IMG/VR virus record: IMGVR_UViG_3300008107_000028
Span: 34,195 to 98,194 of that record
DNA length: 64,000 nucleotides
Direction: 5' to 3' (one strand)
From: a virus
Taxonomy: Duplodnaviria > Caudoviricetes
Shown here: positions 6,290 to 57,151 of the stretch, in pieces
Position numbering within the stretch: the first letter of the stretch is position 1
Layout: each line of letters opens with the position of its first letter
The notes under the pieces: model-generated
What the model was told of the DNA's origin: nothing
Seen by the model: the letters and a program-made list of their open reading frames with translations, nothing else
The model's database searches: none
Made by a program: the position numbers and the translations under genes

Positions 6290-6310
6290 ATTAATCAATA
6301 TTTATAAAAT

Positions 6311-22565: not shown

Positions 22566-22625
22566 ATCATTTGTTTTTAAGAATGATTTTTATTATATTT
22601 GTTTAATAACTATAAAATTATAAAC

Positions 22626-25014: not shown

Positions 25015-25070
25015 AACTAATGAACCGGATTTTTCCGGTTCATTTTTCTATTTATATTAAATTAGTGAAT

Positions 25071-25490
25071 ATGGAATACATCGGAGAATTAATTTTATTA
25101 AGAGGACTACCGGGTAGCGGCAAAAGTACTCTTGGTGAAATTATATTATATACACGTGGATCGGATAACACAAATGCGGTATTGTCTGCTGATGATTATT
25201 TTATTGACGTTAATGGTAATTATAATTTTGATTACACAAAATTAAAAGAGGCTCACAATGATTGTGTATTAAGATGTGTTGAAAGAATGAAAAATCAAAT
25301 CGTTAAAATTGTTGTGGCTAACACATTTACACAAGAATGGGAAATGGAAAAGTATTTTGAAATTGCAGAAAGATACAAATATAGAGTTCATAGTTTAATT
25401 GTTGAAAATAGACATGGTAGTGAAAATATACATAGTGTACCAAAAGATAAACTTCAACAAATGAAGGAGAGATTTCAAATCAAACTCTAA
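25071..25490 (+). CDS. Polynucleotide kinase-like P-loop protein (AAA_33)
   Basis: 'LLRGLPGSGKST', 'SADDYF', 'VANTF', 'HSVP'. Confidence 0.85.
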   Translation: MEYIGELILLRGLPGSGKSTLGEIILYTRGSDNTNAVLSADDYFIDVNGNYNFDYTKLKEAHNDCVLRCVERMKNQIVKIVVANTFTQEWEMEKYFEIAERYKYRVHSLIVENRHGSENIHSVPKDKLQQMKERFQIKL

Positions 25491-25550
25491 TGAGTAAGTT
25501 TTTCGTTTCCTACGCATATCCGAAAAAAGAAAAAAAGAAAAGATTATTTA

Positions 25551-26615
25551 GTGTTATCAATATTAGAAAAATATTATCAAAATGGTTTGGTTTTAAAACA
25601 AACTCATCCGACTCTTGATCTATCTATATGGAACTATTCCCCAAAAGTTCAGTACGAAAAATTATGGGATGATGTCACTAAAATTTGTAGAGGTTTAGTT
25701 ACAAACTCCGAAGGAAAAATAATCGCAAGACCATTTAAAAAATTTTTTAATTACGAAGAACATTCTGTGAATGAAATTCCAAATGAATCATTTGAAGTTT
25801 TCGAAAAAATGGACGGTTCATTAGGAGTTGTTTTTTATTATCACGGAGAATGGCACATGGCAACAAGAGGATCATTTATCTCCAATCAATCTCTTGTTGG
25901 TCTCAAAATGTTAAAAGAACTTTCGATTTTAAAAAATTATCCATCAACGGGTTTAAATCGTAATTGGACTTATCTATTTGAAATAATATATAAAGAAAAC
26001 AGAATCGTTTGTGATTACGATTTTGAAGGTTTGGTTTTACTTGGTGCATATGAAACAGAATCAGGTAATGAAATTGATTTTGATATATTAAAACATAAAG
26101 TAGGTCTTTTTAATGATGTTAGAATAGTTAGAAAATATAATGGTATTAATGATTTCAAAAAATTAAAAGAAACGATTGCCGATGATCGAGAAGGTTATGT
26201 TATTCGTTTTAAAAACGGATTTAGAATAAAAATAAAAGGTGAAGAATATATTCGTTTACATAGAATATTAACAAATATATCCAGTAGAGATATTTGGGAA
26301 CACCTTAAAGATGGAAAATCCTTAGATGAAATTCTTGATAAGGTTCCCGATGAATTTTATAATTGGGTTAAAGAAACTAAAAATAACTTAAATGATGAAT
26401 TCACAAAAATTGAAAATGAATATAAATGGATTTACAAGATTATTACAAGATCATCAAATTCAACAGAAAGAAAAGTTTTTGCAGAATATGCATTGAAATA
26501 TAAACATTCATCTATATTATTTTCAATGTATAATAAAAAAGATTATAAAAAAATAATTTGGAAACTATTATATCCAAGTTACACAAAACCATTTAAAAAT
26601 GATAAAGAAAATTAA
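25551..26615 (+). CDS. RNA ligase (T4 Rnl1-like)
   Basis: 'CRGLV', 'RPFKKFFN', motif I 'EKMDGSLG', 'EGYVIR', 'KIKG.EY'. Confidence 0.9.
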   Translation: MLSILEKYYQNGLVLKQTHPTLDLSIWNYSPKVQYEKLWDDVTKICRGLVTNSEGKIIARPFKKFFNYEEHSVNEIPNESFEVFEKMDGSLGVVFYYHGEWHMATRGSFISNQSLVGLKMLKELSILKNYPSTGLNRNWTYLFEIIYKENRIVCDYDFEGLVLLGAYETESGNEIDFDILKHKVGLFNDVRIVRKYNGINDFKKLKETIADDREGYVIRFKNGFRIKIKGEEYIRLHRILTNISSRDIWEHLKDGKSLDEILDKVPDEFYNWVKETKNNLNDEFTKIENEYKWIYKIITRSSNSTERKVFAEYALKYKHSSILFSMYNKKDYKKIIWKLLYPSYTKPFKNDKEN

Positions 26616-27075
26616 CGTTTACTTAGATGATGTAAGAACACCAACTGAAGGTGATTGGGAAGTTGTTAGAAATTATGATGAATTTGTTTCAATAATAAAT
26701 TTACGTGGGTTAGAAAATATCGAAACGATATCCTTAGATCATGACTTGGGTGAAGGGGCAATGATTGAATATTATACAAATGTAAAAAATAATTTTACCT
26801 TAGATTATAATAATATACAAGAAAAAACTGGATACGATTGTTGTAAATTTTTGATTGATTTAAGTATGAATAAAAATATCCTACTGCCTCAAGTCTATGT
26901 TCATTCCGCAAACCCGATCGGTAGTGCAAATATGATGGGTTATATTAATAATTATTTAATGAATTGTCGACTTCCCCAAACATGTGTTAGAGTACAAATT
27001 CCACATACAATTGATGAAAGTCACCAAATTCCACCTGAGGCCAGAAAGGCAAAATGGGATAGAAGTAAAAAATAA
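26599..27075 (+). CDS. Cyclic-phosphate processing receiver-domain protein
   Basis: 'VYLDDVR', 'ISLDHDLG', 'TGYD', 'VHSANP.G' motifs; adjacent to the RNA ligase. Confidence 0.8.
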   Translation: MIKKINVYLDDVRTPTEGDWEVVRNYDEFVSIINLRGLENIETISLDHDLGEGAMIEYYTNVKNNFTLDYNNIQEKTGYDCCKFLIDLSMNKNILLPQVYVHSANPIGSANMMGYINNYLMNCRLPQTCVRVQIPHTIDESHQIPPEARKAKWDRSKK

Positions 27076-27477: not shown

Positions 27478-27542
27478 TGTATCGAGAGGTACATTTATTG
27501 TTTTTTGTCAACCCCCCGATGTTTTTACATCGGGGTTTTTTT
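27478..27542 (+). ncRNA. Putative trans-acting antisense small RNA 'C' targeting the leader of the 27541-37239 operon
   Basis: Promoter, ~30-nt unstructured segment and terminator (27510-27542); 27481-27509 is 27/29 identical to 37285-37313. Confidence 0.7.
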
Positions 27543-28887
27543 ATAGTATCATTCTACTTCCAATTAAAACATTATGTAAGATTGGTGAATTCGGCATAGT
27601 GTTTACACTTAATTTATAATTTAAACTTAAACCAAATCTTTTACTTAGTTTATAATCTATGGATGATCCCAATAAAAAACCAAGATTTCTATTAACCGAA
27701 GACTTTTTTGTTTGAGTATTGTAACTAATTGGTGATGTCATAATAAAAACCTGAGGTGACAATGTAATTTTTTTACTGTAAGAATATGGTTTTGTCCAAA
27801 ATCCAACCGCAGATGTTACAACATTATAATCGAATCCTGTGTTTGTTGTATTTCTCAAAACTAAATTTATTGCACCTAAATTATAACCATATGTTCCATA
27901 CTTAGGATTTGGTCTTACGTAAGTATAAGATAATAAGTTCATAAAATTACCATCCAAATAGGCAAATGTAGTTCCATATGAATGTATAGCCTTTAGTGTT
28001 CCTTCTTCAAATTCCATTTTTGTGTATCCTCCACTTAGTGCGAATTGTTTTAAATTACTCCATATCATGGCATTTGCTGAAAATGTTTCATCTCCAGCCA
28101 TACTCGCTCTACTCCAACCCAATCCAACAATCATGTTTAATCTTTTGTCAGGATTTTGTGCTGCGGTCAAATCGGAGGCAAACATCATTGGATTTAAATT
28201 TCCATTTTTCTTTTTCTCCTCCTTTTTTTCTTCTTTTTTTTCTTCTTTTTTTTCTTCTTTTTTTTCTTCTTTAGATTCTTCTTTTTTAGATTCCTCTTTC
28301 TTTTCCTCACTTTTACTTTCTGATTTAGATTCCTCTTTTGATTCAGATTTAGTTTCTGATTTTGACTCAGATTTAGTTTCTGTTTTGGTTTCGGTTTTAC
28401 TTTCCGAAGAAGATGATGACGAATTGCTACTTTGTGAGGAAGATGATGTGTTGTTACTTGTTGATGGTGGTGTTGAAGAAGATGTAGATACGGATGATGA
28501 TGCCGCTGATGATGCAGAACTACTTGCAGCAGAGCTTGCCGATGAACTCGCTGCGGTACTTGCTGCTGTTGATGCAGCTTGAGACGCCGCTTGAGATACT
28601 GTATTTTGAACGGTTTGTTGTACTACTTGACTTGTTGGGCAGGCCATTGAGGAATATTGTGCAAAAACTGTATTCAACCATGTTTGAACTGTACCATTCG
28701 CAACCTCAATCGGAGTAAAAGTTCTGACTTGATTATAAAAAGAAACTACCGCATTACCATTTACATACGTCGTTGTCACCGTTTTAACTTCTCCTGTACA
28801 CTTATCTACATATGTTTGTGTATAAGTTTGTCCATTTACTTTATAAACGAACAATAATATTAATATACTTATTAAACATTTTTTCAT
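27541..28887 (-). CDS. Exported protein with a low-complexity S/E/K linker and a C-terminal outer-membrane beta-barrel
   Basis: Signal peptide; S/A-rich then EEKK repeats; alternating amphipathic strands in the C-terminal ~220 aa. Confidence 0.65.
   Translation of the reverse strand: MKKCLISILILLFVYKVNGQTYTQTYVDKCTGEVKTVTTTYVNGNAVVSFYNQVRTFTPIEVANGTVQTWLNTVFAQYSSMACPTSQVVQQTVQNTVSQAASQAASTAASTAASSSASSAASSSASSAASSSVSTSSSTPPSTSNNTSSSSQSSNSSSSSSESKTETKTETKSESKSETKSESKEESKSESKSEEKKEESKKEESKEEKKEEKKEEKKEEKKEEKKKNGNLNPMMFASDLTAAQNPDKRLNMIVGLGWSRASMAGDETFSANAMIWSNLKQFALSGGYTKMEFEEGTLKAIHSYGTTFAYLDGNFMNLLSYTYVRPNPKYGTYGYNLGAINLVLRNTTNTGFDYNVVTSAVGFWTKPYSYSKKITLSPQVFIMTSPISYNTQTKKSSVNRNLGFLLGSSIDYKLSKRFGLSLNYKLSVNTMPNSPILHNVLIGSRMIL
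28204..28600 (-). repeat. Low-complexity coding repeats (EEKK, SESK, ASSS)
   Basis: Tandem 12-nt TTTTTCTTCTTT-type units. Confidence 0.8.
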
Positions 28888-28890
28888 TTA

Positions 28891-29733
28891 TTAAAAATTC
28901 AAACCAAATCCAAATTGAGTATAATTTCTAATAGGATCAGTATCTATTTTAAGTGTCAAATTTTTTACATCTCTCATAATACCAACCTTTGCGGTAACAA
29001 AGTTTGAATTATATTTTGGAAAAGTGATTTCACCAATCGCATCTTTCCCTCTCCATCTAACAATTTCATTTCCAAATCCAATCATTGCATGAAATCCAGT
29101 TCTTTTGAATCTTTTACCACCACCAAGGTAGATTGTTTTTTCTTTAATTAAATCATTAATTAATGGAAAGTCAACTTGTGTAATTCTACCATATGGAAAA
29201 AAAGTTGATCGGTCTGGTTGATATGTCGAAACAAAATCTACCATAAAATAGTTTTTTCCGCCAACGGCAAATGATGCACCAATTTGGTTATTAGTTGTTT
29301 TATGTAAACCAAAATTTATTATTGGTTTTTTACCTCTAATAGTATCTCTCTTACCATTTTCGTAAACATAAATTCTTTGTGGTTGACGATACCCCCAATC
29401 ATTCCAATACCAAGACGGTTGCCAAAAGTTCCAACCAAATCCAGGTGCTCCCCACATATCCCATCTATTCCACCCCCATCCAAATCCACCAACCCACGGG
29501 TCTCTTACAATGATATTAGAACCTGGTCTTGTTCTTACAGGTCTATCATACCCTCTTGATGGTGGTTGACTTCTCCAATCACTAACATCATTTCTTTGTG
29601 GAATTGATTGTTGTACGGATGGAGTACTTCTTTGTGGTGATGATTGTTGTTGAGGTGGGTTACTTCTCCAAGATGAAACTTGTGAAAATGTTATCACAGG
29701 AATTAACAATAATAATATTAATGACTTCTTCAT
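28891..29733 (-). CDS. Putative outer-membrane beta-barrel protein with a W/G-rich N-region
   Basis: Signal peptide; ends in YTQFGFGLNF (terminal Phe beta-signal). Confidence 0.65.
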   Translation of the reverse strand: MKKSLILLLLIPVITFSQVSSWRSNPPQQQSSPQRSTPSVQQSIPQRNDVSDWRSQPPSRGYDRPVRTRPGSNIIVRDPWVGGFGWGWNRWDMWGAPGFGWNFWQPSWYWNDWGYRQPQRIYVYENGKRDTIRGKKPIINFGLHKTTNNQIGASFAVGGKNYFMVDFVSTYQPDRSTFFPYGRITQVDFPLINDLIKEKTIYLGGGKRFKRTGFHAMIGFGNEIVRWRGKDAIGEITFPKYNSNFVTAKVGIMRDVKNLTLKIDTDPIRNYTQFGFGLNF

Positions 29734-29818
29734 AATTAAAGTGTTTTATAACATATAAATATTAAAAAGGGGGTTATAAACCCCCCCTTATTATATTTTA
29801 ATTAATATGTTGTTTTTG

Positions 29819-30547
29819 TTATTTTGGGAAAACACCCTTTTTTACTAATTTATCTAATATGTTTGCACATGCAACATCTAATGCTTTTTTTGTTGCAATT
29901 GATATTGTTGATTGATTGAACTTAATTGGATCAACAGATGCGTCTGAAACCAAAGTTAATTCTCTTGTAGTTTTCGATTCACCTAACCCTGAAGCGGCAA
30001 TTATAGCACCCGTTTCGGCATTCGTAAATCTAACTTGAAGACCCAAACGAGTCACCATATTATCTTTAATACCATTTTTTAAATTGATGGTTTCATCTTC
30101 GGATACTGAGTAATCATAAACTTCAATCTCAACAAAATAATTTGCCAATTTAATTTTTCCTCTACCTTCTATTTTATTTTCAGATATACCGGCATTTGAT
30201 GCTTTGAACTGTTGAACCATTCTGTTTTTTATTTCCGTTTTATCTTCGGTAAATTCAAAACGATTAAGGTTATCCAAATATTCTAATACAATATTTGCAA
30301 CACCCAAACCAACTCTTTTCTCTTTTAATTCAGGGTACATATCATATACCTCTTCACCAATACCACATTTCAATATTTGAATATTCTTTTTGGGACCTTC
30401 GTAGTCTAAAAATGCTGAAATATCTTTTTTCTTTTCAAATTCTGCTTTATATTCTTCTGTTTTTGTAACACCTATCGTTTGTGCATTAAGTGAGTTGCTT
30501 AAAACAAAAATTAATAACAAACTTAAAACTAAAACTAATTTTTTCAT
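29819..30547 (-). CDS. CsgG/HfaB-family (curli assembly/secretion channel-like) protein
   Basis: Signal peptide; 'GLGVANIVLEYL..LNRF', 'LANYFVEIEVYDYS', 'LGLQVRFTNAETGAIIAASGLG'. Confidence 0.7.
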   Translation of the reverse strand: MKKLVLVLSLLLIFVLSNSLNAQTIGVTKTEEYKAEFEKKKDISAFLDYEGPKKNIQILKCGIGEEVYDMYPELKEKRVGLGVANIVLEYLDNLNRFEFTEDKTEIKNRMVQQFKASNAGISENKIEGRGKIKLANYFVEIEVYDYSVSEDETINLKNGIKDNMVTRLGLQVRFTNAETGAIIAASGLGESKTTRELTLVSDASVDPIKFNQSTISIATKKALDVACANILDKLVKKGVFPK

Positions 30548-30599
30548 ATTCTTTATTTTATAAATATAATAAAAGAGGGAGTCAAACTCCCTCTTTTAA

Positions 30600-30857
30600 T
30601 TAACCTTCGACTTCTTCATCTTTTTTATTGTGTTTGTTGTTTATATACTTGTCCACCGAGGCAATACCGAAGGCACCAAGTGTAATAACCAAGAAACCAT
30701 CAAAGATAAATTCGTTAATAAGTAATTCTTTACCTAACCAACCTGTTACGAGGTCAACTACTAAAGCTAATACCATACAAACGAATGATGCAAAACCGAC
30801 TACCGATTTTTCGTTGATTGTGTTGTTGTCGTTAAATAATTCTTTAAAAAATCCCAT
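30600..30857 (-). CDS. Small 2-TM membrane protein (holin-like)
   Basis: Two hydrophobic segments and a charged C-terminus. Confidence 0.6.
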   Translation of the reverse strand: MGFFKELFNDNNTINEKSVVGFASFVCMVLALVVDLVTGWLGKELLINEFIFDGFLVITLGAFGIASVDKYINNKHNKKDEEVEG

Positions 30858-30892
30858 AATTTGTGTTTTGTGTTTTGTGTTTTGTTTATGAT

Positions 30893-31561
30893 TTAACCCT
30901 CTATATGGTCATCAGGGTCAGGATCCTTAATTTTTCCACACTTCAGACATTCTAAATCACCGTCACCATCTGAGTCACCCCAAATATGTTCACATTGTCT
31001 ATGCGCGAAATACATATCAATTTTACCATCACCATCAAAGTCAATACCATCCATTTGTCCATCACCATCTTCATCCACTTCAACGCCTGTTCTACCTGTC
31101 TTTGGAGTTGTTACGGCATCGGTAATTTGTGTTTCAACTACAGTTTCTTTTGGTTTATTAACTTCAATCATATTAATTTCATGTGCATGATTTGCAGCTT
31201 GAACAAATGCATCGGGTATTAATGGTGTAACAGGTTTATCACTTTCTTTCATATCATTTGTGTTTGAAAGAGAAACCCCATCCTCTTCGTCCATTTTTTG
31301 AACTAACATCTTATCCTTATCAGTATCACTAAACCAATAGTCAATGATTTTACCATAGGAACCGATGAAAGCACCTAATAAAAGAAGTAATAATTCTTTC
31401 CACTCACCACCAATCTCATTCTTACCTATAATAGCTGCGAAAATACCCCCCATTATTAACATAAACCCCCCAAGAACGATAGCTGTGATAAACCATCTTC
31501 TTTTCATCATAGAGTTTAATAATTCTTTAAAACCTGTTGGTTGTTGATTGTTTTCCATCAT
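30893..31561 (-). CDS. 2-TM membrane protein with DxDGDG calcium-binding-like repeats and a C/H zinc-finger-like tail
   Basis: DEDGDGQMDGIDFDGDGKID; CEH.WGDSDGDGDLECLKCG. Confidence 0.6.
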   Translation of the reverse strand: MMENNQQPTGFKELLNSMMKRRWFITAIVLGGFMLIMGGIFAAIIGKNEIGGEWKELLLLLLGAFIGSYGKIIDYWFSDTDKDKMLVQKMDEEDGVSLSNTNDMKESDKPVTPLIPDAFVQAANHAHEINMIEVNKPKETVVETQITDAVTTPKTGRTGVEVDEDGDGQMDGIDFDGDGKIDMYFAHRQCEHIWGDSDGDGDLECLKCGKIKDPDPDDHIEG

Positions 31562-31573
31562 TATATAAAAATT

Positions 31574-31894
31574 TTACCACTCAGCTGGTTTTTCTTTAAA
31601 CTCATCACCGTCTTTTTTCTTAACAGGTGCGGGTTTTTCTTTTATTGTTTCTTTTTCTTTGATTACAACCGTTTTACCGCCGGCACCTCCAGCCGCTTGT
31701 TGCTGTTGATTTGAGTTTGTAATATTAATTACTGGTGCCGCTTGCTGTACTGGAGTAGCTTCTTTGTCTCCACCTCCAAATAATGTGGTGACCCATACAC
31801 CACCTGCGGTTACTACGGTACCGGCTACTCCGACAATGGTCTTCTTTAATCCTGACCATGTACCATCATTTGTGCTTTCTACTTCTTCTGACAT
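31574..31894 (-). CDS. Small membrane-anchored hypothetical protein
   Basis: One hydrophobic segment, Q/A-rich linker. Confidence 0.6.
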   Translation of the reverse strand: MSEEVESTNDGTWSGLKKTIVGVAGTVVTAGGVWVTTLFGGGDKEATPVQQAAPVINITNSNQQQQAAGGAGGKTVVIKEKETIKEKPAPVKKKDGDEFKEKPAEW

Positions 31895-31911
31895 AATTTG
31901 TGTTTTTGTGT

Positions 31912-32283
31912 TTATAGTTTATTAAAATCGGTTATTCCTAATTCTTTATCGTTTTGATCATATAATCCTATTCTATATGCGGAGGACGGTAAAGCATTGG
32001 TATATACTTTAAGTATATTGTCTCCAACCTTTACGTTCACAGTTTCTTTAGAAATCACTTTGTTACCAATATTAAAAATCTTTATAGTTACTGTTTGGGC
32101 GACGTCACTTTTTACGTTCATTGCCACTTCTGATGTAACAAAAGGAGTCTCTAATTTTATACCAACCTTGGAGGTTATTTCTAAAGCGTTTGGTGTTGGT
32201 GGTAGAGGAGGTTCAACGAATGGAGTTTTTCTACATCCGAGAATAAATACGGCCGCGATTAATGTAATAATTAATTTTTTCAT
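31912..32283 (-). CDS. Lipoprotein with an Ig-like, T9SS C-terminal-domain-like fold
   Basis: Lipobox FILGC-RK; 'VTIKIFNIGNKVI...GDN...LPSSAY.I' resembles the Por-secretion CTD/FlgD-Ig pattern. Confidence 0.6.
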   Translation of the reverse strand: MKKLIITLIAAVFILGCRKTPFVEPPLPPTPNALEITSKVGIKLETPFVTSEVAMNVKSDVAQTVTIKIFNIGNKVISKETVNVKVGDNILKVYTNALPSSAYRIGLYDQNDKELGITDFNKL

Positions 32284-32293
32284 TGTTTTTTGT

Positions 32294-32641
32294 TTAGTTT
32301 AATATTAATAACGTTCTACCTATTTGGACATTATTAACATCCTCTAAGGATAAATATAAATATCTAATAGGCAACGATTTTGTATATATATTCAAAGTAT
32401 TTTGTCCGATTTTTCCGGCAATTCTTTCTCTTGTAATTACCTGTTGTCCGACAGAATCAAAAAGAGTCATCGTGTGTATTCCTTCTGTCTTTAAATCAAA
32501 ATTTAATTCATCTCCATTAGATACCTTGAGTTCTTTTACAGAAAACACGTCCACTTTTCCAATAGAAGAAATTGGCTCGGGTAAATTTGTTTTTCTACAT
32601 CCTGATATAAAAATCAAAAAACATAATAATACAATTCTCAT
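32294..32641 (-). CDS. Lipoprotein, paralog of 31912-32283
   Basis: Lipobox ISGC-RK; shared 'G.N.L..YT..LP...Y.L.L.D.N..' pattern. Confidence 0.65.
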   Translation of the reverse strand: MRIVLLCFLIFISGCRKTNLPEPISSIGKVDVFSVKELKVSNGDELNFDLKTEGIHTMTLFDSVGQQVITRERIAGKIGQNTLNIYTKSLPIRYLYLSLEDVNNVQIGRTLLILN

Positions 32642-34950
32642 TCTATTCTAATTTTAATGCTACCGCCCATTTTGGTAACCGCCTCATTTGTTGCGATTGA
32701 CACCAACCCGAGCGAATTTGTTATTTTTTTATTCAACTTAAAAGATAATTTGTATTCTGTGGTATTATCTAAAATCCCCCCACTCATATTCAACGACCCT
32801 AAATTTATATTATCACCTCTATCATTACCAAAGTTTATCGGTGATCCGGCTGTTTTAAATTGTGTTCCACTATATTTTAAAATTGAGTTATCGTAATTGA
32901 TTCTAAATTGTGTTCCAACAATATCATTTGTATTTGGATTAAACTTTACTATGACAACCAAACTATCACCGATAATTTCAGATATTACATAAGCACTTGG
33001 TTCGGAAGAATTTTTTGATATACTGTTTGACATAGAAGTAATTGAATTTATCTGATTGGCAACACCATTCGTAACAGTTTGAGATGGTGAATGAGACATA
33101 TTCACATCTCCTTTCCAAAAGGCGTTCAATGTGAAGGCGTTTAACAACTGAGTTGAGCTCAGTGTCAAGTTACTATAACTGTCTGAAGTTGCATTTGGAT
33201 ATGACATCCAATTACTTTTTGTTACCGCATCGTAATCAGATTTTGGTAACAATTTAATAAAAGATTGTAAATTATTTGTTGTTAATAATGATTCTTGACC
33301 TAATAAATGTCTTAATAATTTAAAACAATCTGCTTCATTAAATTGGCCATTTTCATCTACATCTGCGTTCATAAATTGTATACCTGAAGTGAAATAGTTA
33401 CTTGTATTTCCGAATATTCCACCGTCTGCAAATTCTTTAAAAGCAAGATATACATCCGATACCGTCACTATTCTATCTAACATTGAAGTTATAGTATCTG
33501 CTATTGGATTTTGGAATTGTACCATTTGCGGTTTATACACCATTTGATTTGAAAAACTTATTGTTGATGTGAAAGCATAATCAGTATTCCAACCATTTAC
33601 ATTTCGGATATTCGAATTGTATATTGATGTTCCATCAGTTACTTTTGTAAGTGGTGATGGAACTCTATATTGTGCCCACGCAGCATCGCTACTTAAATAT
33701 GTCACAGGCCCATCATATGTATCTAATATTTTTGCACGCGATATTGTTGATGGAACTGTATTGCCAAATGTTCTCATATCAATTAAAAGCCGACTATCAC
33801 CATTTAACCAACTTGCATTTGGATTGGTATACGAATATTCGACTTGACCAGAATTTATGTTTGCGGATATTCCACCAACAACTTTAATTGTATCTGAAAA
33901 AGAACTCATATCCACTCTACCAATATTATTTAATGATGTATAATTTTGTGAGAATGGTGTCCAAACATTATTAGATTGTGAATGTGTTCTTAATGCGAAT
34001 CTACTTGCCGTAAGATTGTTAAAATTAAAAGTATATTGAACTCTAAACACATCTCCATTTGAATGTATTACACTATTAGAATAAAATTCAGTAAATGTTT
34101 GGTCATCAGGATTTGTCCATGTTCCATACTCAATTACATAAGGATTATTCCAATTGTTTGATAAATCGTTCCAACAAGCTGCACCATTCCATTTTGCTAC
34201 TGCATAGTTTTCACTACCATTACTACCATTTGGTTCACCACCACACCAGTTGTTATATACACCTACTATGTTTCCGTTTAGTTGTCCATTTGCGGTTTTC
34301 ATTACTGTCCCCTTTTCAGGCCCAGCATCAATTACCCATCTTCCATCCACAACTTCATCCGTTGCTGCAAACCATACATTCGTTGCAGGAACATTTACTC
34401 TAATAAATTCTTCTTCAGATGTGGAGGTTATTGTTACCAAATATCCCGACTGTCCTTTGAATGTACTTAATAAAGACCTTGCTCTTGCGTTTGTATATGT
34501 AGTTCTATCAGCGGTTGCGGTTAGTGGTTTATAAAAGTGTCCATTAACTCCGTTGTAAAAAAATCCAATTGGATTGATAGTTGCCGCAACTGATAATTGA
34601 ACATTACCAACTACTGAACCTGTGTTTACTTTCAAAGATGCTAATGCTGTATTAACATTGGCGATTGTTCCCGTTACAACTAAACGAGTTTTATTACCAT
34701 TTAAAGTAAATCCACTTGCTGCTGTTAAACCTGTTGTTGTGTTAAGATAAAATGTAGTACCAGATGGTGGATTGATTAAACTAATTGAAGCAAGTAATGT
34801 TTCAGTTGCGTTAAATCCACTTAATACAAATCCACTGGCATCCTGTCCAATGGTGTTTATGGCAAACGATTTGGGTTCAGGTGCCGTTACCGACTGCCCA
34901 AACCCAAAAGTTGTGATTATAGATAATAGAATTACAAATAATAATCTCAT
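32638..34950 (-). CDS. Exported adhesin-like protein with C-type lectin, dockerin-like and cohesin-like domains
   Basis: Signal peptide; CTLD motifs 'NGHFY', 'YLVTITS.EE', 'YNNWCGGEPN', 'WNDL'; 'ADVDENGQFNEADCFKLLRHLLG'; C-terminal 'GTQFRINYDNSILKY'. Confidence 0.75.
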   Translation of the reverse strand: MRLLFVILLSIITTFGFGQSVTAPEPKSFAINTIGQDASGFVLSGFNATETLLASISLINPPSGTTFYLNTTTGLTAASGFTLNGNKTRLVVTGTIANVNTALASLKVNTGSVVGNVQLSVAATINPIGFFYNGVNGHFYKPLTATADRTTYTNARARSLLSTFKGQSGYLVTITSTSEEEFIRVNVPATNVWFAATDEVVDGRWVIDAGPEKGTVMKTANGQLNGNIVGVYNNWCGGEPNGSNGSENYAVAKWNGAACWNDLSNNWNNPYVIEYGTWTNPDDQTFTEFYSNSVIHSNGDVFRVQYTFNFNNLTASRFALRTHSQSNNVWTPFSQNYTSLNNIGRVDMSSFSDTIKVVGGISANINSGQVEYSYTNPNASWLNGDSRLLIDMRTFGNTVPSTISRAKILDTYDGPVTYLSSDAAWAQYRVPSPLTKVTDGTSIYNSNIRNVNGWNTDYAFTSTISFSNQMVYKPQMVQFQNPIADTITSMLDRIVTVSDVYLAFKEFADGGIFGNTSNYFTSGIQFMNADVDENGQFNEADCFKLLRHLLGQESLLTTNNLQSFIKLLPKSDYDAVTKSNWMSYPNATSDSYSNLTLSSTQLLNAFTLNAFWKGDVNMSHSPSQTVTNGVANQINSITSMSNSISKNSSEPSAYVISEIIGDSLVVIVKFNPNTNDIVGTQFRINYDNSILKYSGTQFKTAGSPINFGNDRGDNINLGSLNMSGGILDNTTEYKLSFKLNKKITNSLGLVSIATNEAVTKMGGSIKIRIE

Positions 34951-36596
34951 TATTCAACTACGAGTTCTATTTTGTTACCTAAAGCATCAACAGCATCGGC
35001 TAAAACGAAATAGAATAATCCCGCAGTATTCGCTAATGATACTTTTGGTGTAAAGATTAGTTTATATGGTGTTCCTGTTTTAATTCTGGCAGTCTTCAAT
35101 TGGTCAATAGAACCAAATGTTAATCTACCATTATCATGTGTTGAGAAATTTGTTATTGTTGATCCCGCATCAAATATTACATTTTCTAAAGTAAGTTTAG
35201 TTGAGTCATAATTCATAATAACTTCTAAACCTGCTAAACCTTCTTTAGTTAATCCACCTGTTAATATAACTTTACCATTTTCTAATTTAGATACAACTGT
35301 TAATTTAGCTGTCTCCAAAGTTTTATCTTGATAACCAACTGACATAGTTTGTATACCACTTTCGGTTGAACCATTTTTAGAATTTGTAAACACACCACTT
35401 GATATACTTGAAGCAATTGCCGAAGTTGACGATGAATGTGACCAATCTAAGTCACCACCCCAAGCAAATACAGCATTTACTGTTTGAATTGGTGTTGTGA
35501 TGTATACTCTATTTCTCGTTGTTCCATCTAACCAACTTTGATTTAATAAACCACTATACCATCTTACACTTGTTGAAGTTGAAGTTGGTATTAAAGCACT
35601 TGTTGAAACATTTATACCCATAACATGAGCAAAAAGAAAATATGCATCACTTTCATTAAAGTTATTATCATTAAGTGTAATATTTCCAATTCTTTTTTCT
35701 AAAACAGGATATTGAAAATATGTAGCATTACCACTTATATCTGTTTGTGTATGTCCTAAAAATGCTTTATACGCATCGGTTACTGTTATAACATTATTCA
35801 TCCACGATTTTTGAAAAGCGGCACCAACGAATACACCTAAACTATCACCAACTCTTACACCTGAAGTAAAAATTGCTTCTCCACTGGCATCAAGTGGTCT
35901 TGTTTGTAATGGTTGTTGTGACCAATCAATATCACCACTACCATCGTTCTTTAATCTCATTAATTGAACTGAGTGATCTGTAATTGTATATCCTTGTGGA
36001 AATAAAACTTTAACTTTAAACTGAGAAGTATTACCAATAACGCCTGTTAAAGATAAATCGGTAACATCTGTATACACTGGTGATATATTTACTGAGGCAT
36101 CGTTAATTGCGTACGACATATCAATTTTATGAATGTCAGTATATTCACCCAAATCTTTTACCACAAATTTTTGAGTTGCAATATCACCGTTTATTGATGC
36201 ATCTGTTCTTTGAACAGTTAATTGACCCACATTCCAATCATTATTAATTGTGTAAGACCAAGGTGTTGCCAAATATTGTGCATATAATGAAGTGTCGGGA
36301 ACATTTGATGAAGGAGTAAATTTGTAGTTCGCCCATTCAGTAAAATATGTTTGGGTTGAAGAACCTTGACTGAAAAAAGTACTATTAGGTACCATAGTCA
36401 AAGCCTTGTTATTATACTGATATCTCATCCAAAAATAACGAGGTGTTGTCGTCCCTCTTTCAACTGTATATTTTACAGTAATTGTGTCACCTACCCTATA
36501 TCCAGAAGTTGGTGTTACAGTTTGGTTTACTCTTAATTGAGAAAAAGTAGTCGTAGTAATTGACAAAAATAAAAATAAATTAATTAGTTTTTTCAT
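34950..36596 (-). CDS. Exported protein with cohesin-like and degenerate dockerin-like domains
   Basis: Signal peptide; 'VGDTITV..MRYQYNNKAL', 'ITVTDAYKAF..FNESDAY', 'W.GDL..SHS', 'AGLEVIMNYDSTKL'; C-terminal half parallels 32638-34950. Confidence 0.65.
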   Translation of the reverse strand: MKKLINLFLFLSITTTTFSQLRVNQTVTPTSGYRVGDTITVKYTVERGTTTPRYFWMRYQYNNKALTMVPNSTFFSQGSSTQTYFTEWANYKFTPSSNVPDTSLYAQYLATPWSYTINNDWNVGQLTVQRTDASINGDIATQKFVVKDLGEYTDIHKIDMSYAINDASVNISPVYTDVTDLSLTGVIGNTSQFKVKVLFPQGYTITDHSVQLMRLKNDGSGDIDWSQQPLQTRPLDASGEAIFTSGVRVGDSLGVFVGAAFQKSWMNNVITVTDAYKAFLGHTQTDISGNATYFQYPVLEKRIGNITLNDNNFNESDAYFLFAHVMGINVSTSALIPTSTSTSVRWYSGLLNQSWLDGTTRNRVYITTPIQTVNAVFAWGGDLDWSHSSSTSAIASSISSGVFTNSKNGSTESGIQTMSVGYQDKTLETAKLTVVSKLENGKVILTGGLTKEGLAGLEVIMNYDSTKLTLENVIFDAGSTITNFSTHDNGRLTFGSIDQLKTARIKTGTPYKLIFTPKVSLANTAGLFYFVLADAVDALGNKIELVVE

Positions 36597-37239
36597 CTGT
36601 TAATAGTTTAGTTACAAGTTTATCGGCCGTTTTTTTCAAAGCGTTAGAAAGTGAAGTTTGATTAAACTTACCTCCTTGATCAACAATTAACGTTGACATA
36701 GAAATTTCAGAAGAAGATTCTTCTACTAAGACTTCTTTTTCTTTTTTACCATCTTTATAAAGAATACCCTTCATTCTAATAACGACCTCTTCTTCATTTT
36801 TGTGAAATACTGATACGTTTTTCTTTGTTGTTAAAACGTCAAAATAAACAATTTCTACTTTTAGTTTATTTGGTGCGTTAGGTGACAGTTCATATTCTTT
36901 ATCTTGAAGGTACTCTTCTAATATATTCTTGACACCAAATTCTAAATTTCTATTACCCGCTAATTTTCCTATTTTAACTTTGTTTTCAACACTTTCAACC
37001 CATACGTGTTGGTCTTCTTCGTAATATATATTTGATGGGTCATTTTTGAATCTTCCATCAAACTTTACCGTAAAAGAATTTACTAAATTCCTAATAACAT
37101 CGTCTTGTCCTGTTGCTTCTAAATAAACAAAATAAATTTGAGTAAGTAGTGCTAATGACACGAACGCCACAAAAAGGTATATCACCATGAATACCATTTT
37201 GTCTAACATTAAATTAGTGATTGATTTAATTTTTTGCAT
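36580..37239 (-). CDS. Membrane-anchored, CsgG-related protein (first gene of the operon)
   Basis: N-terminal TM; shares 'GV.NI..EYL' and 'KFNQ...S.A.KK' with 29819-30547. Confidence 0.55.
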   Translation of the reverse strand: MQKIKSITNLMLDKMVFMVIYLFVAFVSLALLTQIYFVYLEATGQDDVIRNLVNSFTVKFDGRFKNDPSNIYYEEDQHVWVESVENKVKIGKLAGNRNLEFGVKNILEEYLQDKEYELSPNAPNKLKVEIVYFDVLTTKKNVSVFHKNEEEVVIRMKGILYKDGKKEKEVLVEESSSEISMSTLIVDQGGKFNQTSLSNALKKTADKLVTKLLTDEKTN

Positions 37240-37700: not shown

Positions 37701-37754
37701 AAAATTTCCTTTTTATATAAATATTTCTTATATTTTCAATATAAATTGATTTTT

Positions 37755-38534
37755 ATGACTTTTAAACACCTTACTGACTTAGAAATCCAACAAATGACAT
37801 TTGATTGGAGATATAGAGGTTTCACAATTCTTGAGTTACTAACAGAAGAAGAATGTGACGAAATAAATGATGAACTCGAACGTCTTAGAGAAAAACGTAT
37901 GGGTACAATCACTGAAGACGGTAAACCATGGGGAGAGTGGGATCCATTTGCTTATCCACATAAGTTATCAGATAAACTTGAAAAACTTTTTGCTCACCCT
38001 AAATTAATTGAAGCGTGTGAGTTTTTAATGGAAGGTGAATTAATGGGAATGCAAAGCTGGGCATATTTCAAACCCCCTGGTCAATTAGGTAGAGATCAGC
38101 ATCAAAACGCGTTTTACACAGGTTGTAAACATAATGAGATTATCAACACCGCATTAGCATTAGATAATCACGACGCCGCAAATGGTGCCGTTTGGAATTA
38201 CGAAGGTTCCCACAGATTACCAACATTACCAATTGAAGTAGATGAAGAAAGAACAAAAACAAACCCAACATTTTGGAGAAATGAAAGAGGTAAACCTTGT
38301 GTGATGCCAGAAGGACATGATTTTAGAAAAGTTGAAGGTGTTTTGAAAAAAGGTCAATGTGTGTTGTTACATTCACACTGTGTACATGGTTCTGAACCCA
38401 ACAATTCAAATAGAATGAGAAGAAACTTCTTGGGTGGATTCTTGAAAAAGGGTGCGTACTATAATCAAGGTTCACACATGAAAAGAGAACCAATTGATAT
38501 GTATGAATTGAGAAAAAAACATTGGGGAGAATAA
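37755..38534 (+). CDS. Phytanoyl-CoA dioxygenase (PhyH)-family Fe(II)/2-oxoglutarate oxygenase
   Basis: 'YFKPPG...HQN..Y', 'ALD...NGA....GSH', 'HGSEPNNSNRMRR'; the usual HxD is HQN here. Confidence 0.85.
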   Translation: MTFKHLTDLEIQQMTFDWRYRGFTILELLTEEECDEINDELERLREKRMGTITEDGKPWGEWDPFAYPHKLSDKLEKLFAHPKLIEACEFLMEGELMGMQSWAYFKPPGQLGRDQHQNAFYTGCKHNEIINTALALDNHDAANGAVWNYEGSHRLPTLPIEVDEERTKTNPTFWRNERGKPCVMPEGHDFRKVEGVLKKGQCVLLHSHCVHGSEPNNSNRMRRNFLGGFLKKGAYYNQGSHMKREPIDMYELRKKHWGE

Positions 38535-57063: not shown

Positions 57064-57151
57064 ATTAAAATTATACATTTTTTTTACAAAAAAATAAACA
57101 CATACATTTTGTTTTTCAAAATTTTAAGTTTATTTTTTATAAAATACTAAT

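Follow-up and report, generated by a model that had tools for sequence, protein, structure and literature searches.

The window, by which the whole 64,000-nucleotide stretch of DNA analysed is meant, belongs to a viral contig of 98 kb with a completeness estimate of 29%. Major head protein, portal and terminase genes at 8.5-17.4 kb of the window identify the element as a phage, and the source is a large phage of freshwater Flavobacteria. Positions 27541-37239 carry, on the minus strand, 11 consecutive co-oriented ORFs, here termed the cassette and named by length (g448, g280, g242, g85, g222, g106, g123, g115, g770, g548 and g219), which are listed below from the first gene onwards:

36580..37239, minus strand: g219, the cassette's first gene; exported or membrane-anchored product resembling YajG (Pfam Lipoprotein_16)
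34950..36596, minus strand: g548, secreted multidomain protein with an N-terminal cohesin-like region, a degenerate dockerin-like helical segment and a C-terminal cohesin-like domain
32638..34950, minus strand: g770, secreted protein with a beta-sandwich, a C-type lectin domain, a beta-rich middle, a dockerin-like segment and a C-terminal cohesin fold
32294..32641, minus strand: g115, small lipoprotein, paralog of g123; lipobox ISGC
31912..32283, minus strand: g123, small lipoprotein, paralog of g115; lipobox ILGC
31574..31894, minus strand: g106, membrane protein with a single pass and a tail rich in Gln/Ala/Gly and Lys/Glu, last residue Trp
30893..31561, minus strand: g222, two-TM protein whose juxtamembrane block is invariant and whose C-terminal part carries the motif H-R-x-C-x-H ... 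C-x2-C
30600..30857, minus strand: g85, small two-TM protein, C-terminus charged
29819..30547, minus strand: g242, exported protein of the CsgG fold; it has no lipobox and is predicted to form oligomers by lateral packing
28891..29733, minus strand: g280, secreted protein with a Gln/Pro/Ser-rich and Trp/Gly-rich N-terminal part; candidate small outer-membrane beta-barrel
27541..28887, minus strand: g448, secreted protein with a Cys-containing N-terminal domain, low complexity and a conserved C-terminal domain; candidate outer-membrane anchor

Reading of the sequence, from which the descriptions of g106 and g85 also derive, places a signal peptide, lipobox or TM segments in all 11 ORFs. A crude hydrophobicity criterion (mean Kyte-Doolittle of at least 2.0 over 15 aa) was passed by 9/11 cassette ORFs versus 6/63 of the remaining ORFs in the window (Fisher p 2.1e-6), and the hydrophobic segments of the two below threshold, g548 (1.70) and g106 (1.69), are both Thr/Gly-rich. 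Right behind the hydrophobic core, a small residue followed by Gln is found in 70/70, 44/44, 53/53 and 18/18 distinct homologs of g548, g770, g242 and g280, respectively (together 185/185 with Gln after the signal peptide), against a background rate of 0.18-0.34 in random windows and just 28/69 homologs of g219. Gln directly after the signal peptide is the Bacteroidetes Q-rule (PMC5837995, PMC10367356). All cassette products carry a Sec-type export or membrane signal, in a form adapted to Bacteroidota, and the initial annotation of 11 co-oriented genes with uniform export or membrane features holds. Its view that signal peptides speak against a role in the virion is shared here, since these signals are conserved in the homologs.

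The gene block is punctuated by promoter-like motifs and hairpins:

30570..30598, minus strand: terminator-like hairpin after g85, with a 13-pair stem and a T-rich tail behind it
30559..30567, minus strand: promoter-like motif ATATTTATA, 12 nt upstream of the g242 start
29765..29789, minus strand: terminator-like hairpin after g242, with an 11-pair stem
29754..29762, minus strand: promoter-like motif ATATTTATA, 21 nt upstream of the g280 start
27514..27535, listed on the plus strand, no strand assigned: GC-rich hairpin between the convergent g448 and a 107-aa ORF, with a 9-pair stem (6 GC pairs) and a T-run

The motif precedes g242, g280 and g219 and no internal gene of the cassette, while terminator-like hairpins stand behind g85, g242 and g448. 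Three transcription units are apparent, each with the motif before it: g219 to g85, g242 alone, and g280-g448. In relatives, TATTTATA occurs at most 60 nt upstream of g242 in 16/50 distinct sequences (background 0.0097), and the motif lies upstream of g280 in 5/17. The same motif is present ahead of the gene adjoining the MCP gene, and a looser form ahead of the portal gene. Its count in the window is modestly above chance (11 versus 4.46 expected, 11 being reached by 2/100 shuffles).

Folds of CsgG, cohesin and C-type lectins were sought in structure predictions and all three were found. The predicted model of g242 (pLDDT 81.9, pTM 0.70) retrieves CsgG at Foldseek ranks 1-20 (E 2.9e-8 to 8.7e-6, TM 0.37-0.57), followed by PelC, FlgT and GNA1162. 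Its relative P0179 (phmmer E 1.9e-18) matches Pfam CsgG (E 1.9e-17, 63.7 bits), and 6/42 members of the family alignment also match Pfam LpoB, a periplasmic activator of peptidoglycan synthase. Self-association of g242 into oligomers by lateral packing is predicted: with four copies the model scored 0.75 versus 0.01 for the best of 3 controls, and in the complex runs contacts agreed to at least 94% with partner pLDDT of at least 79. The mark used is reached by 20/30 proteins solved as one-chain pairs and by 1/23 solved as single chains, a calibration from which this job differed in its custom alignment and four copies; the pass may mirror likeness to solved CsgG nonamers.

Two CsgG-related paralogs had been proposed, of which g242 stands. 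The candidacy of g219 as the second is not borne out, paralogy not being demonstrable: BLASTP between the two gives E 0.18, and the profile-profile match covers 33 C-terminal columns only, at a probability of 49%. The g219 product resembles YajG instead, with a match to Pfam PF03923 at E 7e-5 (23 bits, under the cut-off of 25); Lipoprotein_16 is matched by 20/25 family members at E <= 0.01 and TraT by 2/25. Its relatives have cleavable signal peptides, and a PDB sequence search with g219 gave no match. The notion of a CsgG secretion channel is likewise doubtful, since g242, unlike CsgG, has neither a lipid anchor nor clear membrane hairpins: the long hairpin of the model has a polar tip, and a signal-peptidase-I site followed by Gln stands in place of the lipobox seen in its distant cellular homologs. 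Family searches for CsgE, CsgF and CsgA/B gave no match among the cassette proteins. PelC and GNA1162 are non-pore periplasmic rings, and g242 may form such a ring instead of a pore.

The two largest proteins share their C-terminal ~300 residues (BLASTP E 2e-8, 23% identity). The domains of g770 are, in order, an N-terminal beta-sandwich, a lectin domain (~135-280), a beta-rich middle, a four-helix dockerin-like segment (484-549) and a cohesin fold (652-759). Foldseek with its model (pLDDT 78.1, the lectin part being weaker, with block pLDDT 45-66 over residues 200-270) retrieves cohesins (2xdh at E 7.6e-6, with a TM on target of 0.67) as well as CEL-I, a C-type lectin (4wqq_A at E 4.8e-5, with a TM on target of 0.65). 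Among 28 relatives, Lectin_C is matched by 25, Cohesin by 16 and Dockerin_1 by 3. In g548, residues 26-173 match Pfam Cohesin at E 1.8e-4 (22.1 bits, cut-off 24.1); Cohesin is matched by 10/29 of its relatives. An earlier description of two large cohesin/dockerin paralogs is thus borne out for the paralogy and the cohesins, the dockerin being weak. The C-type lectin domain, assigned to one of the two, is confirmed in g770, where the residues EPN (239-241), E247 and WND (260-262) are near-invariant across the family; the canonical disulfides are missing from the family consensus. In lectins, an EPN motif suggests that mannose, GlcNAc, glucose or fucose-type sugars are bound.

The lipoproteins g123 and g115 are, as had been claimed, paralogs (BLASTP E 3e-14), with a lipobox kept in 55/57 and 58/59 homologs, respectively. 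The T9SS-CTD-like Ig fold ascribed to them is unverified: its one support is a weak Pfam DUF3244 match of g123 (E 0.0058), no NCBIfam T9SS family is matched, and the joint family profile had no PDB sequence match. In the alignment of g222 (23 sequences), residues 54-95 are almost invariant and H187, R188, C190, H192, C205 and C208 invariant, and an Asp-rich DxDGDG stretch is present in part of the family only. The Cys/His motif is probably zinc-binding and, since it is conserved behind two TM segments, the C-terminus is probably cytoplasmic. Another small two-TM family occupies the cassette in 26 loci other than those with g85.

The proposal that g280 and g448 are beta-barrels could not be verified. 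The C-terminal ~160 aa of g280 terminate in FGFGLNF; a PDB sequence search gave no match, and a protein-atlas feature search gave leads only (OMP_b-brl_2 and OMP_b-brl clusters at 0.88). The g448 protein comprises a small Cys-containing N-terminal domain, a low-complexity stretch of ~150 aa (Ser/Ala/Thr and Glu/Lys) and a ~215 aa C-terminal domain. That last domain has 160 homologs, and no OMP Pfam family is present in any of the 120 listed.

A relative of g548 is encoded in 118/121 candidate viral stretches, and 80 loci were fetched and kept. By tblastn, g219, g548 and g770 are present in all 80, g115 and g106 in 65 each, g123 in 64, g222 in 61, g242 in 60, g448 in 43, g85 in 33 and g280 in 20; many of the loci are truncated at contig ends. 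Synteny in relatives was confirmed in 80/80 viral loci: the order g219-g548-g770-lipoproteins-g106-...-g242 is kept in 44/44 loci of at least 21 kb, and the flanking genes recur in only 1-12 of the 80. In two complete genomes, G303 of 288.7 kb and G305 of 245.4 kb, identity to the window is 31-34% in TerL, 41-43% in portal and 46-50% (partial) in MCP, versus 64% in g548 and 52% and 84% in g242, and their cassettes lie ~85-95 kb from the head genes versus ~10 kb in the window. Between divergent lineages of jumbo phages, similarity in the cassette equals or exceeds that in TerL, portal and MCP, and the cassette appears to act as an exchangeable unit among phage lineages. Pairwise distances among cassette genes are poorly correlated in 36 loci (Spearman -0.10 to 0.33, cassette genes only), so the genes are not inherited strictly as one block, and relatives have insertions within the cassette, such as a glycosyltransferase-like and a phosphoesterase-like gene.

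The nearest cultured relative by both MCP and g242, Flavobacterium phage immuto, has a reduced cassette, gp013-gp019. It includes an annotated lectin (gp013, matching the lectin domain of g770 at E 4.5e-9), a cohesin by annotation (gp015), a g106 homolog (gp016, 48% identity, E 1.7e-17) directly upstream of the g242 homolog (gp017, 54% identity), a protein that has the g448 N-terminal domain (gp018, E 5e-6) and LTF as its last residues, and a g219 homolog (gp019). The available portions of the literature on immuto apparently do not address these genes. The cassette is near-absent from the bacterial genomes searched: across one genome for each of 185,579 species, the g548 family was found at one locus, a 3.4 kb contig of a Schleiferiaceae MAG, and the g242 profile matched 8/301 Flavobacteriales genomes, with a single strong match, on a small contig. 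The synteny, the similarity equal to or above that of head genes, the reduced form in immuto and this near-absence in bacteria are new.

The reading that we favour, tentatively, sees in the cassette a conserved envelope module, specific to phages and carried by T4-like jumbo phages of Flavobacteriales (Bacteroidota), that would serve in glycan binding and surface remodelling. Localisation (surface exposure included), glycan binding and the assembly of cassette proteins with one another are inferred here. During infection, the products would enter the host envelope and assemble there, with the laterally oligomerising g242 and the YajG-like g219 in the periplasm or at the outer membrane, g123 and g115 as small lipoprotein parts, g280 and g448 as candidate outer-membrane parts with long disordered extensions, and g85, g106 and g222 in the inner membrane. 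The large soluble parts would be g770 and g548, combining a dockerin-like segment with cohesin folds; the calcium-type C-type lectin is additional in g770. The most likely activity of the module is that g770 binds glycans of the envelope or surface in a calcium-dependent manner, and the remaining proteins would hold g770 in place.

Of the other explanations, one in which the proteins never reach the surface is unlikely, yet survives best. The g242 ring, g219 and the lectin/cohesin proteins would then act on peptidoglycan or outer-membrane biogenesis, for example stabilising or re-tuning the envelope through the long latent period of a jumbo phage. The missing lipobox and polar hairpin tip of g242, its LpoB-matching relatives and the non-pore rings among its fold matches all agree with this, as does the GlcNAc that an EPN-type lectin could bind. 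An NCBIfam search detected no T9SS C-terminal domain on g770 or g548, and Sec is the only export signal found on them; with g242 lacking a lipid anchor and a clear hairpin, no route over the outer membrane was found for folded proteins of 550-770 aa, which may therefore stay periplasmic. However, candidate outer-membrane proteins with long disordered, low-complexity extensions (g280 and g448) and a cohesin/dockerin architecture are more in keeping with display or scaffolding than with enzyme regulation, and family searches matched no peptidoglycan-binding or peptidoglycan-enzyme families.

A lysis or egress apparatus for the Bacteroidota envelope, with TM proteins as holin and antiholin, spanin-like lipoproteins and g106, and outer-membrane proteins breaching that membrane late, is improbable. 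The layout of g85, with its two TM segments and charged C-terminus, is holin-like, yet the gene is missing from most loci; lipoproteins do accompany an N-terminally anchored membrane protein, conservation is very high, and the motif common to the head genes suggests late expression. Also in its favour, a PHROGs scan of 30 window ORFs outside the first ten cassette proteins gave no canonical spanin or holin. Nevertheless, no endolysin lies in or beside the cassette (that annotated in immuto is ~8 kb off), the only lysis-type matches were an Rz-like spanin (E 0.074) and Cor (E 0.0039, signal peptide only), and lysis needs no lectin/cohesin proteins of such size. More improbable still is that g770 and g548 pile up in the periplasm and, freed at lysis, attach to progeny virions or to glycans in the environment (those of particles, algae or mucus, for example), altering where the phage ends up; a possibly late-type promoter motif, classic binding modules and conservation equal to or above that of head proteins would suit this, but the co-conserved membrane proteins, lipoproteins and CsgG-fold ring are left unexplained. 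A chance cluster of unrelated host-derived secreted morons without joint function, to which the tolerated insertions, discordant gene histories and frequent loss of g280 and g85 might point, is already disfavoured and highly improbable given the order kept in every long locus, five families still together in the distant immuto, the near-absence from bacteria and the enrichment in exported proteins.

For the envelope module, the preferred consequence is that the surface of the infected cell would be remodelled or masked, so that neither further phages nor the progeny of the phage itself adsorb; adhesion of the infected cell is a close second. Roles in aggregation, exclusion or anti-grazing are speculation. 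Exclusion genes are classically early genes, and an exclusion role is at odds with the promoter-like motif common to the cassette and the head genes.

All 11 products of the cassette, the co-oriented minus-strand genes at 27541-37239 of the window (transcription order g219-g548-g770-g115-g123-g106-g222-g85-g242-g280-g448, each named by its length in residues), carry a signal peptide, a lipobox or a transmembrane (TM) segment. This is what the initial annotation claimed, and the features, read in 11 of 11 proteins, are conserved in relatives. By reading of the sequence, cleavable signal peptides followed by Gln are found in g448 and g280 (candidate outer-membrane proteins), g242 (CsgG fold) and g770 and g548 (the lectin/cohesin proteins), lipoboxes in g123 and g115, a signal anchor in the YajG-like g219, and TM segments in g85, g106 and g222. 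A crude test for hydrophobic segments is positive in 9 of the 11 cassette ORFs and in 6 of the 63 other ORFs of the window (p 2.1e-6). Among distinct homologs, a small residue plus Gln after the hydrophobic core occurs in g548 (70/70), g770 (44/44), g242 (53/53) and g280 (18/18), and the lipobox is kept in 55 of 57 homologs of g123 and 58 of 59 of g115; the Gln pattern is seen in just 28 of 69 homologs of g219. Gln at position +1 is termed the "Bacteroidetes Q-rule" (PMC5837995), and PMC10367356 reports the rule for proteins of P. gingivalis phages, five unknown Q-rule proteins among them. The presence of this Gln in phage signal peptides thus connects the phage with a host from the Bacteroidota.

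The viral record comprises 98,194 bases, is estimated to be 29% complete and has a G+C content of about 30%. A T4-type major head protein (MCP; phrog_138, E 1e-67), a portal and a large terminase (TerL) are encoded at 8.5-17.4 kb of the window, and Rhodothermus phage RM378 and the Flavobacterium phages immuto are among the best cultured matches of the head protein; the element is therefore part of a jumbo T4-like phage, whose host is probably a member of the Bacteroidota. No DNA nearly identical to the window was found in the phage collection. The genes around the cassette, and others in the window that may bear on it, are as follows.

22599-24644, plus strand: Lon-like ATP-dependent protease of 681 aa (phrog_4871, E 2e-243), just upstream of the cassette region
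25020-27075, plus strand: likely RNA-repair cluster, adjoining the cassette
37746-38534, plus strand: PhyH-family dioxygenase (E 3e-20), divergent from the cassette
55861-57078 (minus strand), 43726-44400 (plus strand) and 58722-59777 (plus strand): glycosyltransferase-like and dehydrogenase-like genes

The RNA-repair cluster encodes a kinase-like protein (AAA_33, E 5e-12), an RNA ligase of the Rnl type (phrog_562, E 2e-68) and a protein with a cyclic-phosphate processing receiver domain (PF20274, E 1e-22); in some relatives, too, these genes border the cassette on this side. The dioxygenase is about 90% identical across the 5 related loci that carry it. The last group of loci matches phrog_24687 (E 2e-102) and phrog_1721 (E 6e-5), both glycosyltransferase-like, and phrog_9582 (E 3e-55), dehydrogenase-like; these genes may matter should the phage modify surface glycans as well.

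IMG/VR, scanned with g548, yielded 118 relatives, from which 80 loci were fetched. By tblastn, g219 and g770 are found in all 80 of these loci, g115 and g106 in 65, g123 in 64, g222 in 61, g242 in 60, g448 in 43, g85 in 33 and g280 in 20, many of the loci ending at contig edges, and the flanking genes in just 1-12. The initial annotation had looked to synteny as a check on its reading, and the cassette is indeed syntenic in its relatives: the order g219-g548-g770-lipoprotein(s)-g106-...-g242 is kept in 44 of the 44 loci of at least 21 kb, with a varying position of g448 and insertions in some. The insertions include a signal-peptide protein of up to about 300 aa that ends in FQF and lies between g770 and the lipoproteins (26 loci, e.g. 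L004 13949-14842), another family of small two-TM proteins (26 loci) and a lipoprotein rich in Trp (10 loci, e.g. L002 7457-7783); the first and the last of these are absent from the window. A few of the genes inserted in the cassette plainly encode cytoplasmic proteins.

The cassette and the head genes have diverged to different extents, as is evident from a comparison of the window with four long records, two of which, G303 and G305, have terminal repeats and are complete.

Protein identity to the window in four long viral records
Record; TerL; portal; MCP; g548; g242
G302; 81%; 84%; 76%; 61%; 75%
G304; 80%; 80%; 79%; 71%; 76%
G303; 33-34%; 43%; 50% (partial); 64%; 52%
G305; 31-32%; 41%; 46% (partial); 64%; 84%

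Between divergent lineages, the similarity of the cassette thus equals or exceeds that of the terminase, portal and capsid genes; in G305, g219 and g123 are also each 62% identical to those of the window. The distance from the cassette to the head genes is about 10 kb in the window versus about 85-95 kb in G303 and G305. Within the cassette, whose genes alone were compared, pairwise distances for g219, g548, g770, g123 and g242 across 36 loci (L002-L081) correlate poorly (Spearman -0.10 to 0.33), and its alleles appear to have been shuffled with gene order kept. The divergence of the head genes, the change in distance and the discordant distances within the cassette together point to an exchange of the module and its internal alleles among co-circulating phage lineages, or to an unusually strong constraint.

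In bacteria, a scan with the g548 family (one genome for each of 185,579 species) found one locus, L083, a 3.4 kb contig in a Schleiferiaceae MAG, whose g548 is 72% identical. The g242 profile matched 8 of 301 Flavobacteriales genomes, one of them strongly (G194:C68, that is L084, a small contig, E 2.4e-54), the remaining matches (E 2e-13 to 1e-3) falling on CsgG-like ORFs of 296-402 aa. The small contigs L083 and L084 are probably phage fragments, and their binning into Flavobacteriales MAGs gives a weak hint of the host. In view of its near-absence from the bacterial genomes searched, the cassette is not a recent capture from the host.

A cultured counterpart exists. Among records of the phage collection, g242 matches only four of Flavobacterium phage immuto, at 54% identity; tblastn of g548, g770 and g219 against 50,697 phage records gave no match. 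The immuto block gp013-gp019 is a reduced cassette.

gp013 (NC_055915.1): annotated C-type lectin, E 4.5e-9 to the lectin domain of g770
gp014: signal peptide, annotated as "hypothetical"
gp015: annotated cohesin
gp016: equivalent of g106
gp017: equivalent of g242
gp018: equivalent of the g448 N-terminal domain
gp019: equivalent of g219

The immuto genes, like those of the cassette, are co-oriented and adjacent, and provide counterparts of the lectin, the cohesin, g106, g242, the g448 N-terminal domain and g219. In contrast to the cassette, the block has 7 genes, its lectin and cohesin are on separate proteins, its g219 homolog is at the far end, and homologs of g222, g85, g123/g115 and g548 are missing (BLASTP, E 0.01). 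All but two of the seven genes are annotated as "hypothetical".

The two large proteins g770 and g548 match each other over their last 300 residues (E 2e-8), which bears out the claim that they are paralogs. Lectin_C is matched by 25 of 28 relatives of g770 and PA14 by 1; g770 itself reaches 21.8 bits with Lectin_C (PF00059), slightly under the cut-off of 22.6, and its family profile finds many C-type lectin domains in the PDB at E 0.006-0.5. In the model of g770 (pLDDT 78.1), the region has the C-type lectin fold, with matches to the lectin CEL-I (4wqq_A, E 4.8e-5, TM on target 0.65; 1wmy_A, E 6.0e-5), local pLDDT being low and the sugar-site loops modeled at low confidence. The residues of the calcium/sugar site, E239, P240, N241, E247, W260, N261 and D262, are at least 90% conserved among 28 sequences. 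In its fold and its EPN/E/WND residues the domain thus resembles CEL-I and mannose-binding protein, yet it lacks the canonical disulfides, the family consensus having no Cys at those positions.

The C-terminal domain of g770 has the cohesin fold. Foldseek matches it to 2xdh (E 7.6e-6, TM on target 0.67) and also to 5nrm, 2jh2 and 2y3n; the matches span type I, type II and non-cellulosomal cohesins, with TM on target of 0.5-0.68 and a probability of 1.00. With Pfam Cohesin (PF00963, cut-off 24.1 bits), g770 scores 21.9 and g548 22.1 bits, and the family is matched at E <= 0.01 by 16 of 28 relatives of g770 and 10 of 29 of g548. Upstream of the cohesin lies a dockerin-like segment, modeled as helices (484-549), in which one loop, DVDENGQFNEAD, is canonical and the other degenerate; g548 has two degenerate loops. 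Dockerin_1 (PF00404) is matched by 3 of 28 relatives of g770 (best E 3.3e-4), and the PDB dockerin 3ul4_B only at E 0.71, so that the segment is weakly identified as a dockerin. The likeness to the cohesin-dockerin pairs of cellulosomes lies in the cohesin fold and the upstream helical segment with its one DxDxNGxxxxxD-type loop. Unlike cellulosomal systems, the cassette has no glycoside hydrolases, belongs to a phage of a Gram-negative host and places the dockerin-like and cohesin modules on one polypeptide, and the first calcium loop, in comparison with the cellulosomal dockerin, is degenerate in g770. The window proteins were also considered as cargo of the type IX secretion system (T9SS), a reading rejected for want of a match to its C-terminal sorting domain (CTD): scanned with NCBIfam, 10 of the 11 cassette proteins (all but g85) gave none at E <= 0.1. 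The C-terminal end of immuto gp015 looks CTD-like to the eye.

Three of the folds on which the initial annotation built its proposal are found in the models, cohesin and C-type lectin in g770 and CsgG in g242. The latter protein itself matches no Pfam family. An exhaustive HMMER search with it yields 209 clusters at 50% identity (E <= 0.001), its family counts 6393 database proteins at E <= 0.001, and from the size of this family its function would be environmentally widespread. An alignment of 42 sequences was assembled from g242, 31 near-full-length representatives out of 150 listed (fragments omitted) and 10 homologs from phage loci; 14 of the 42 match Pfam CsgG (best E 1.9e-17) and 6 match LpoB. 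One database homolog, P0179 (E 1.9e-18 to g242), scores 63.7 bits with CsgG (PF03783) against a cut-off of 20.8, which P0176, P0167 and P0153 likewise exceed. Ten distant homologs, looked up by cluster, are mostly unnamed metagenome proteins and include two fusions of a CsgG-like domain, P0202 (535 aa) and P0262 (647 aa), with the source names "caspase family protein" and "serine/threonine-protein kinase".

The AlphaFold model of g242 (pLDDT 81.9, pTM 0.70) has the alpha/beta fold of CsgG. CsgG chains fill ranks 1-20 of the Foldseek search (E 2.9e-8 to 8.7e-6, probability 1.00, TM 0.37-0.57), among them 4uv2, 4uv3, 6l7c and 6si7. Below CsgG rank PelC, FlgT, GNA1162 and a flagellar ring protein. 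PelC, GNA1162 and FlgT (E 5e-5 to 3e-4) have the alpha/beta fold in common with g242 and, judged by their PDB entry titles, are ring-forming envelope proteins and not themselves membrane pores; g242 differs from them in not being lipidated and in having no Pel or flagellar genes nearby. In BFVD, just 2 viral fold matches to g242 have E <= 0.001. One, with the same fold, is an uncultured-phage protein named CsgG.

With four copies and a custom alignment, g242 is predicted to associate with itself through a head-to-tail, lateral interface (score 0.75, best control 0.01); at least 94% of the contacts are common to the runs, and the partner pLDDT is at least 79. Of 30 proteins solved as pairs of one chain, 20 pass the mark for self-association; of 23 solved as single chains, 1 does. 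Since CsgG rings are already solved, this result shows likeness and is no proof of binding, and the pass may derive from that likeness.

The CsgG subunit builds its barrel from two amphipathic transmembrane beta-hairpins. In the model of g242 a single long hairpin (137-176) is seen, polar at its tip, besides short loops at 119-136 and 198-211 that are modeled at low confidence. At its cleavage site the protein reads LNA followed by Q, with no Cys, whereas distant cellular homologs carry a GC, SC or AC lipobox. No CsgE, CsgF or CsgA/CsgB family is matched in Pfam by the 11 cassette products. The missing lipobox, the polar hairpin tip and the absence of CsgE, CsgF and CsgA/B argue against a channel role for g242. 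The protein thus resembles the curli channel in its fold, in relatives that pass the Pfam cut-off and in its predicted lateral self-association, yet it is unlipidated and phage-encoded, has about 40 residues fewer than the chains it matches and lacks clear membrane hairpins. Of the proposed pair of CsgG-related paralogs, g242 is retained on the basis of its fold and its relatives' Pfam matches; paralogy of g219 is undetectable (BLASTP E 0.18), and hhalign of the two aligns 33 C-terminal columns only, at a probability of 49%.

Instead, g219 resembles YajG. It scores 23 bits with Pfam Lipoprotein_16 (YajG, PF03923; cut-off 25), and 20 of 25 family members match this family at E <= 0.01 and 2 of 25 match TraT. 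It has no lipobox; where its relatives carry signal peptides of the SPI type, the window copy has a signal anchor. PMC12065857 describes E. coli YajG as a lipoprotein of the outer membrane; it co-purified with LptDE and is reported to be surface-exposed. The lipoproteins g123 and g115 are paralogs (E 3e-14) and both have lipoboxes, in agreement with the earlier claim; for the T9SS-CTD-like Ig fold that this claim also gave them, neither NCBIfam nor the PDB returned a supporting match. What g448 and g280 have in common is their signal peptides only, profile comparison included. For the putative barrels of g280 and the C-terminal domain of g448, no outer-membrane protein (OMP) family of Pfam or NCBIfam and no PDB sequence was matched; none of the 120 g448 homologs listed has an OMP family, and a feature search of a protein atlas gives leads from g280 to OMP_b-brl families at 0.88. 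Two home-made scores of beta-strand alternation were dropped, as they did not separate the candidates from controls.

The small membrane protein g222 (30893-31561, minus strand) has two TM segments. In 23 homologs, with an identity of about 62% elsewhere, hardly any residue changes at 54-95, the stretch surrounding the second segment. Its invariant C-terminal motif, H-R-x-C-x-H ... C-x2-C (residues 187-209), is probably cytoplasmic, as judged from the sequence. An Asp-rich stretch resembling a calcium loop is Glu/His-rich instead in part of the family. PDB sequence and profile searches gave nothing meaningful for g242, g548, g219, g448, g280 or the lipoproteins. PHROGs gave no match below E 4e-4 to 10 cassette proteins besides low-complexity ones, and NCBIfam low-complexity matches only.

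Taken together, the products may form an envelope-targeted assembly, the working end of which would be a calcium-type lectin on a cohesin/dockerin scaffold, with a CsgG-fold oligomer, the YajG-like protein, the lipoproteins and the candidate outer-membrane and inner-membrane proteins as supporting parts. Binding of glycans at the surface or envelope, whereby receptors are masked or the infected cell is made to adhere, is offered as a tentative account of its role. A purely periplasmic role is the closest rival, consistent with the unlipidated g242 and less so with the candidate outer-membrane proteins. A role in lysis or egress is less likely, as searches for a lysis cassette (holin, endolysin, spanin) gave no family at a meaningful E, an Rz-like spanin appearing at E 0.074 only. 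About as unlikely is that the products are released or bind virions, for which their lectin and cohesin modules can be cited, and which would leave the membrane proteins, the lipoproteins and the CsgG-fold protein unexplained.

The glycan-binding account also has a more elaborate and less probable form: a phage-borne envelope nanomachine in which a CsgG-fold ring and outer-membrane partners would anchor or export a lectin lattice linked by cohesin/dockerin modules. This would give the infected Flavobacteriales cell a glycan-binding coat, a viral counterpart of the cellulosome-type scaffold, and the kit would be traded as a cassette between unrelated jumbo-phage lineages.

Most known cases of host-surface alteration by phages involve single genes, such as those for exclusion lipoproteins and O-antigen modifiers. 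Cor and Llp, superinfection-exclusion and receptor-blocking lipoproteins, are single-gene phage envelope morons. They and the P. gingivalis Q-rule proteins are phage-encoded, Sec-exported and proposed to alter the host surface, as the cassette would, whereas here a conserved block of 7-11 genes with defined folds is found in virulent-type T4-like jumbo phages; past the signal peptide, Cor and Llp have no sequence relation to the cassette proteins. These 7-11 exported proteins are kept together in more than 100 uncultured freshwater phage contigs. If a calcium-dependent lectin does coat or mask the cell, virulent phages would have a new way of controlling adsorption or the adhesion of infected cells in lakes, and a non-lipidated viral CsgG-fold ring would gain its first role. 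No prior description of such a cassette was found in the literature, as judged from titles and the beginnings of abstracts. The shorter form in a cultured pair, Flavobacterium sp. LMO8 and phage immuto, makes the function testable at the bench.

The transcription of the cassette may be linked to that of the head genes. The motif ATATTTATA occurs in 11 copies in the window versus 4.46 expected, a count reached by 2 of 100 shuffles (positions 6298, 11534, 24640/24671, 29754, 30559, 32355, 37716, 49789, 52553 and 60045). Most copies precede a start codon of their own strand by 5-25 nt; among them are those of g242, g280, the gene adjoining that of the MCP and a small gene that lies before g219, and a looser form precedes the portal gene. 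Among distinct relatives, the 60 nt before the gene contain TATTTATA in 16 of 50 for g242, 5 of 17 for g280 and 9 of 64 for g219, against a background of 0.0097, and the motif is essentially absent upstream of the internal cassette genes. The T4 late promoter has the consensus TATAAATA, and identification of the motif with it was rejected, TATTTATA in the sense orientation being its reverse complement. The motif is a candidate phage promoter, and its placement, together with terminator-like hairpins 3' of g85, g242 and g448, suggests three transcription units under a promoter class common to the head genes.
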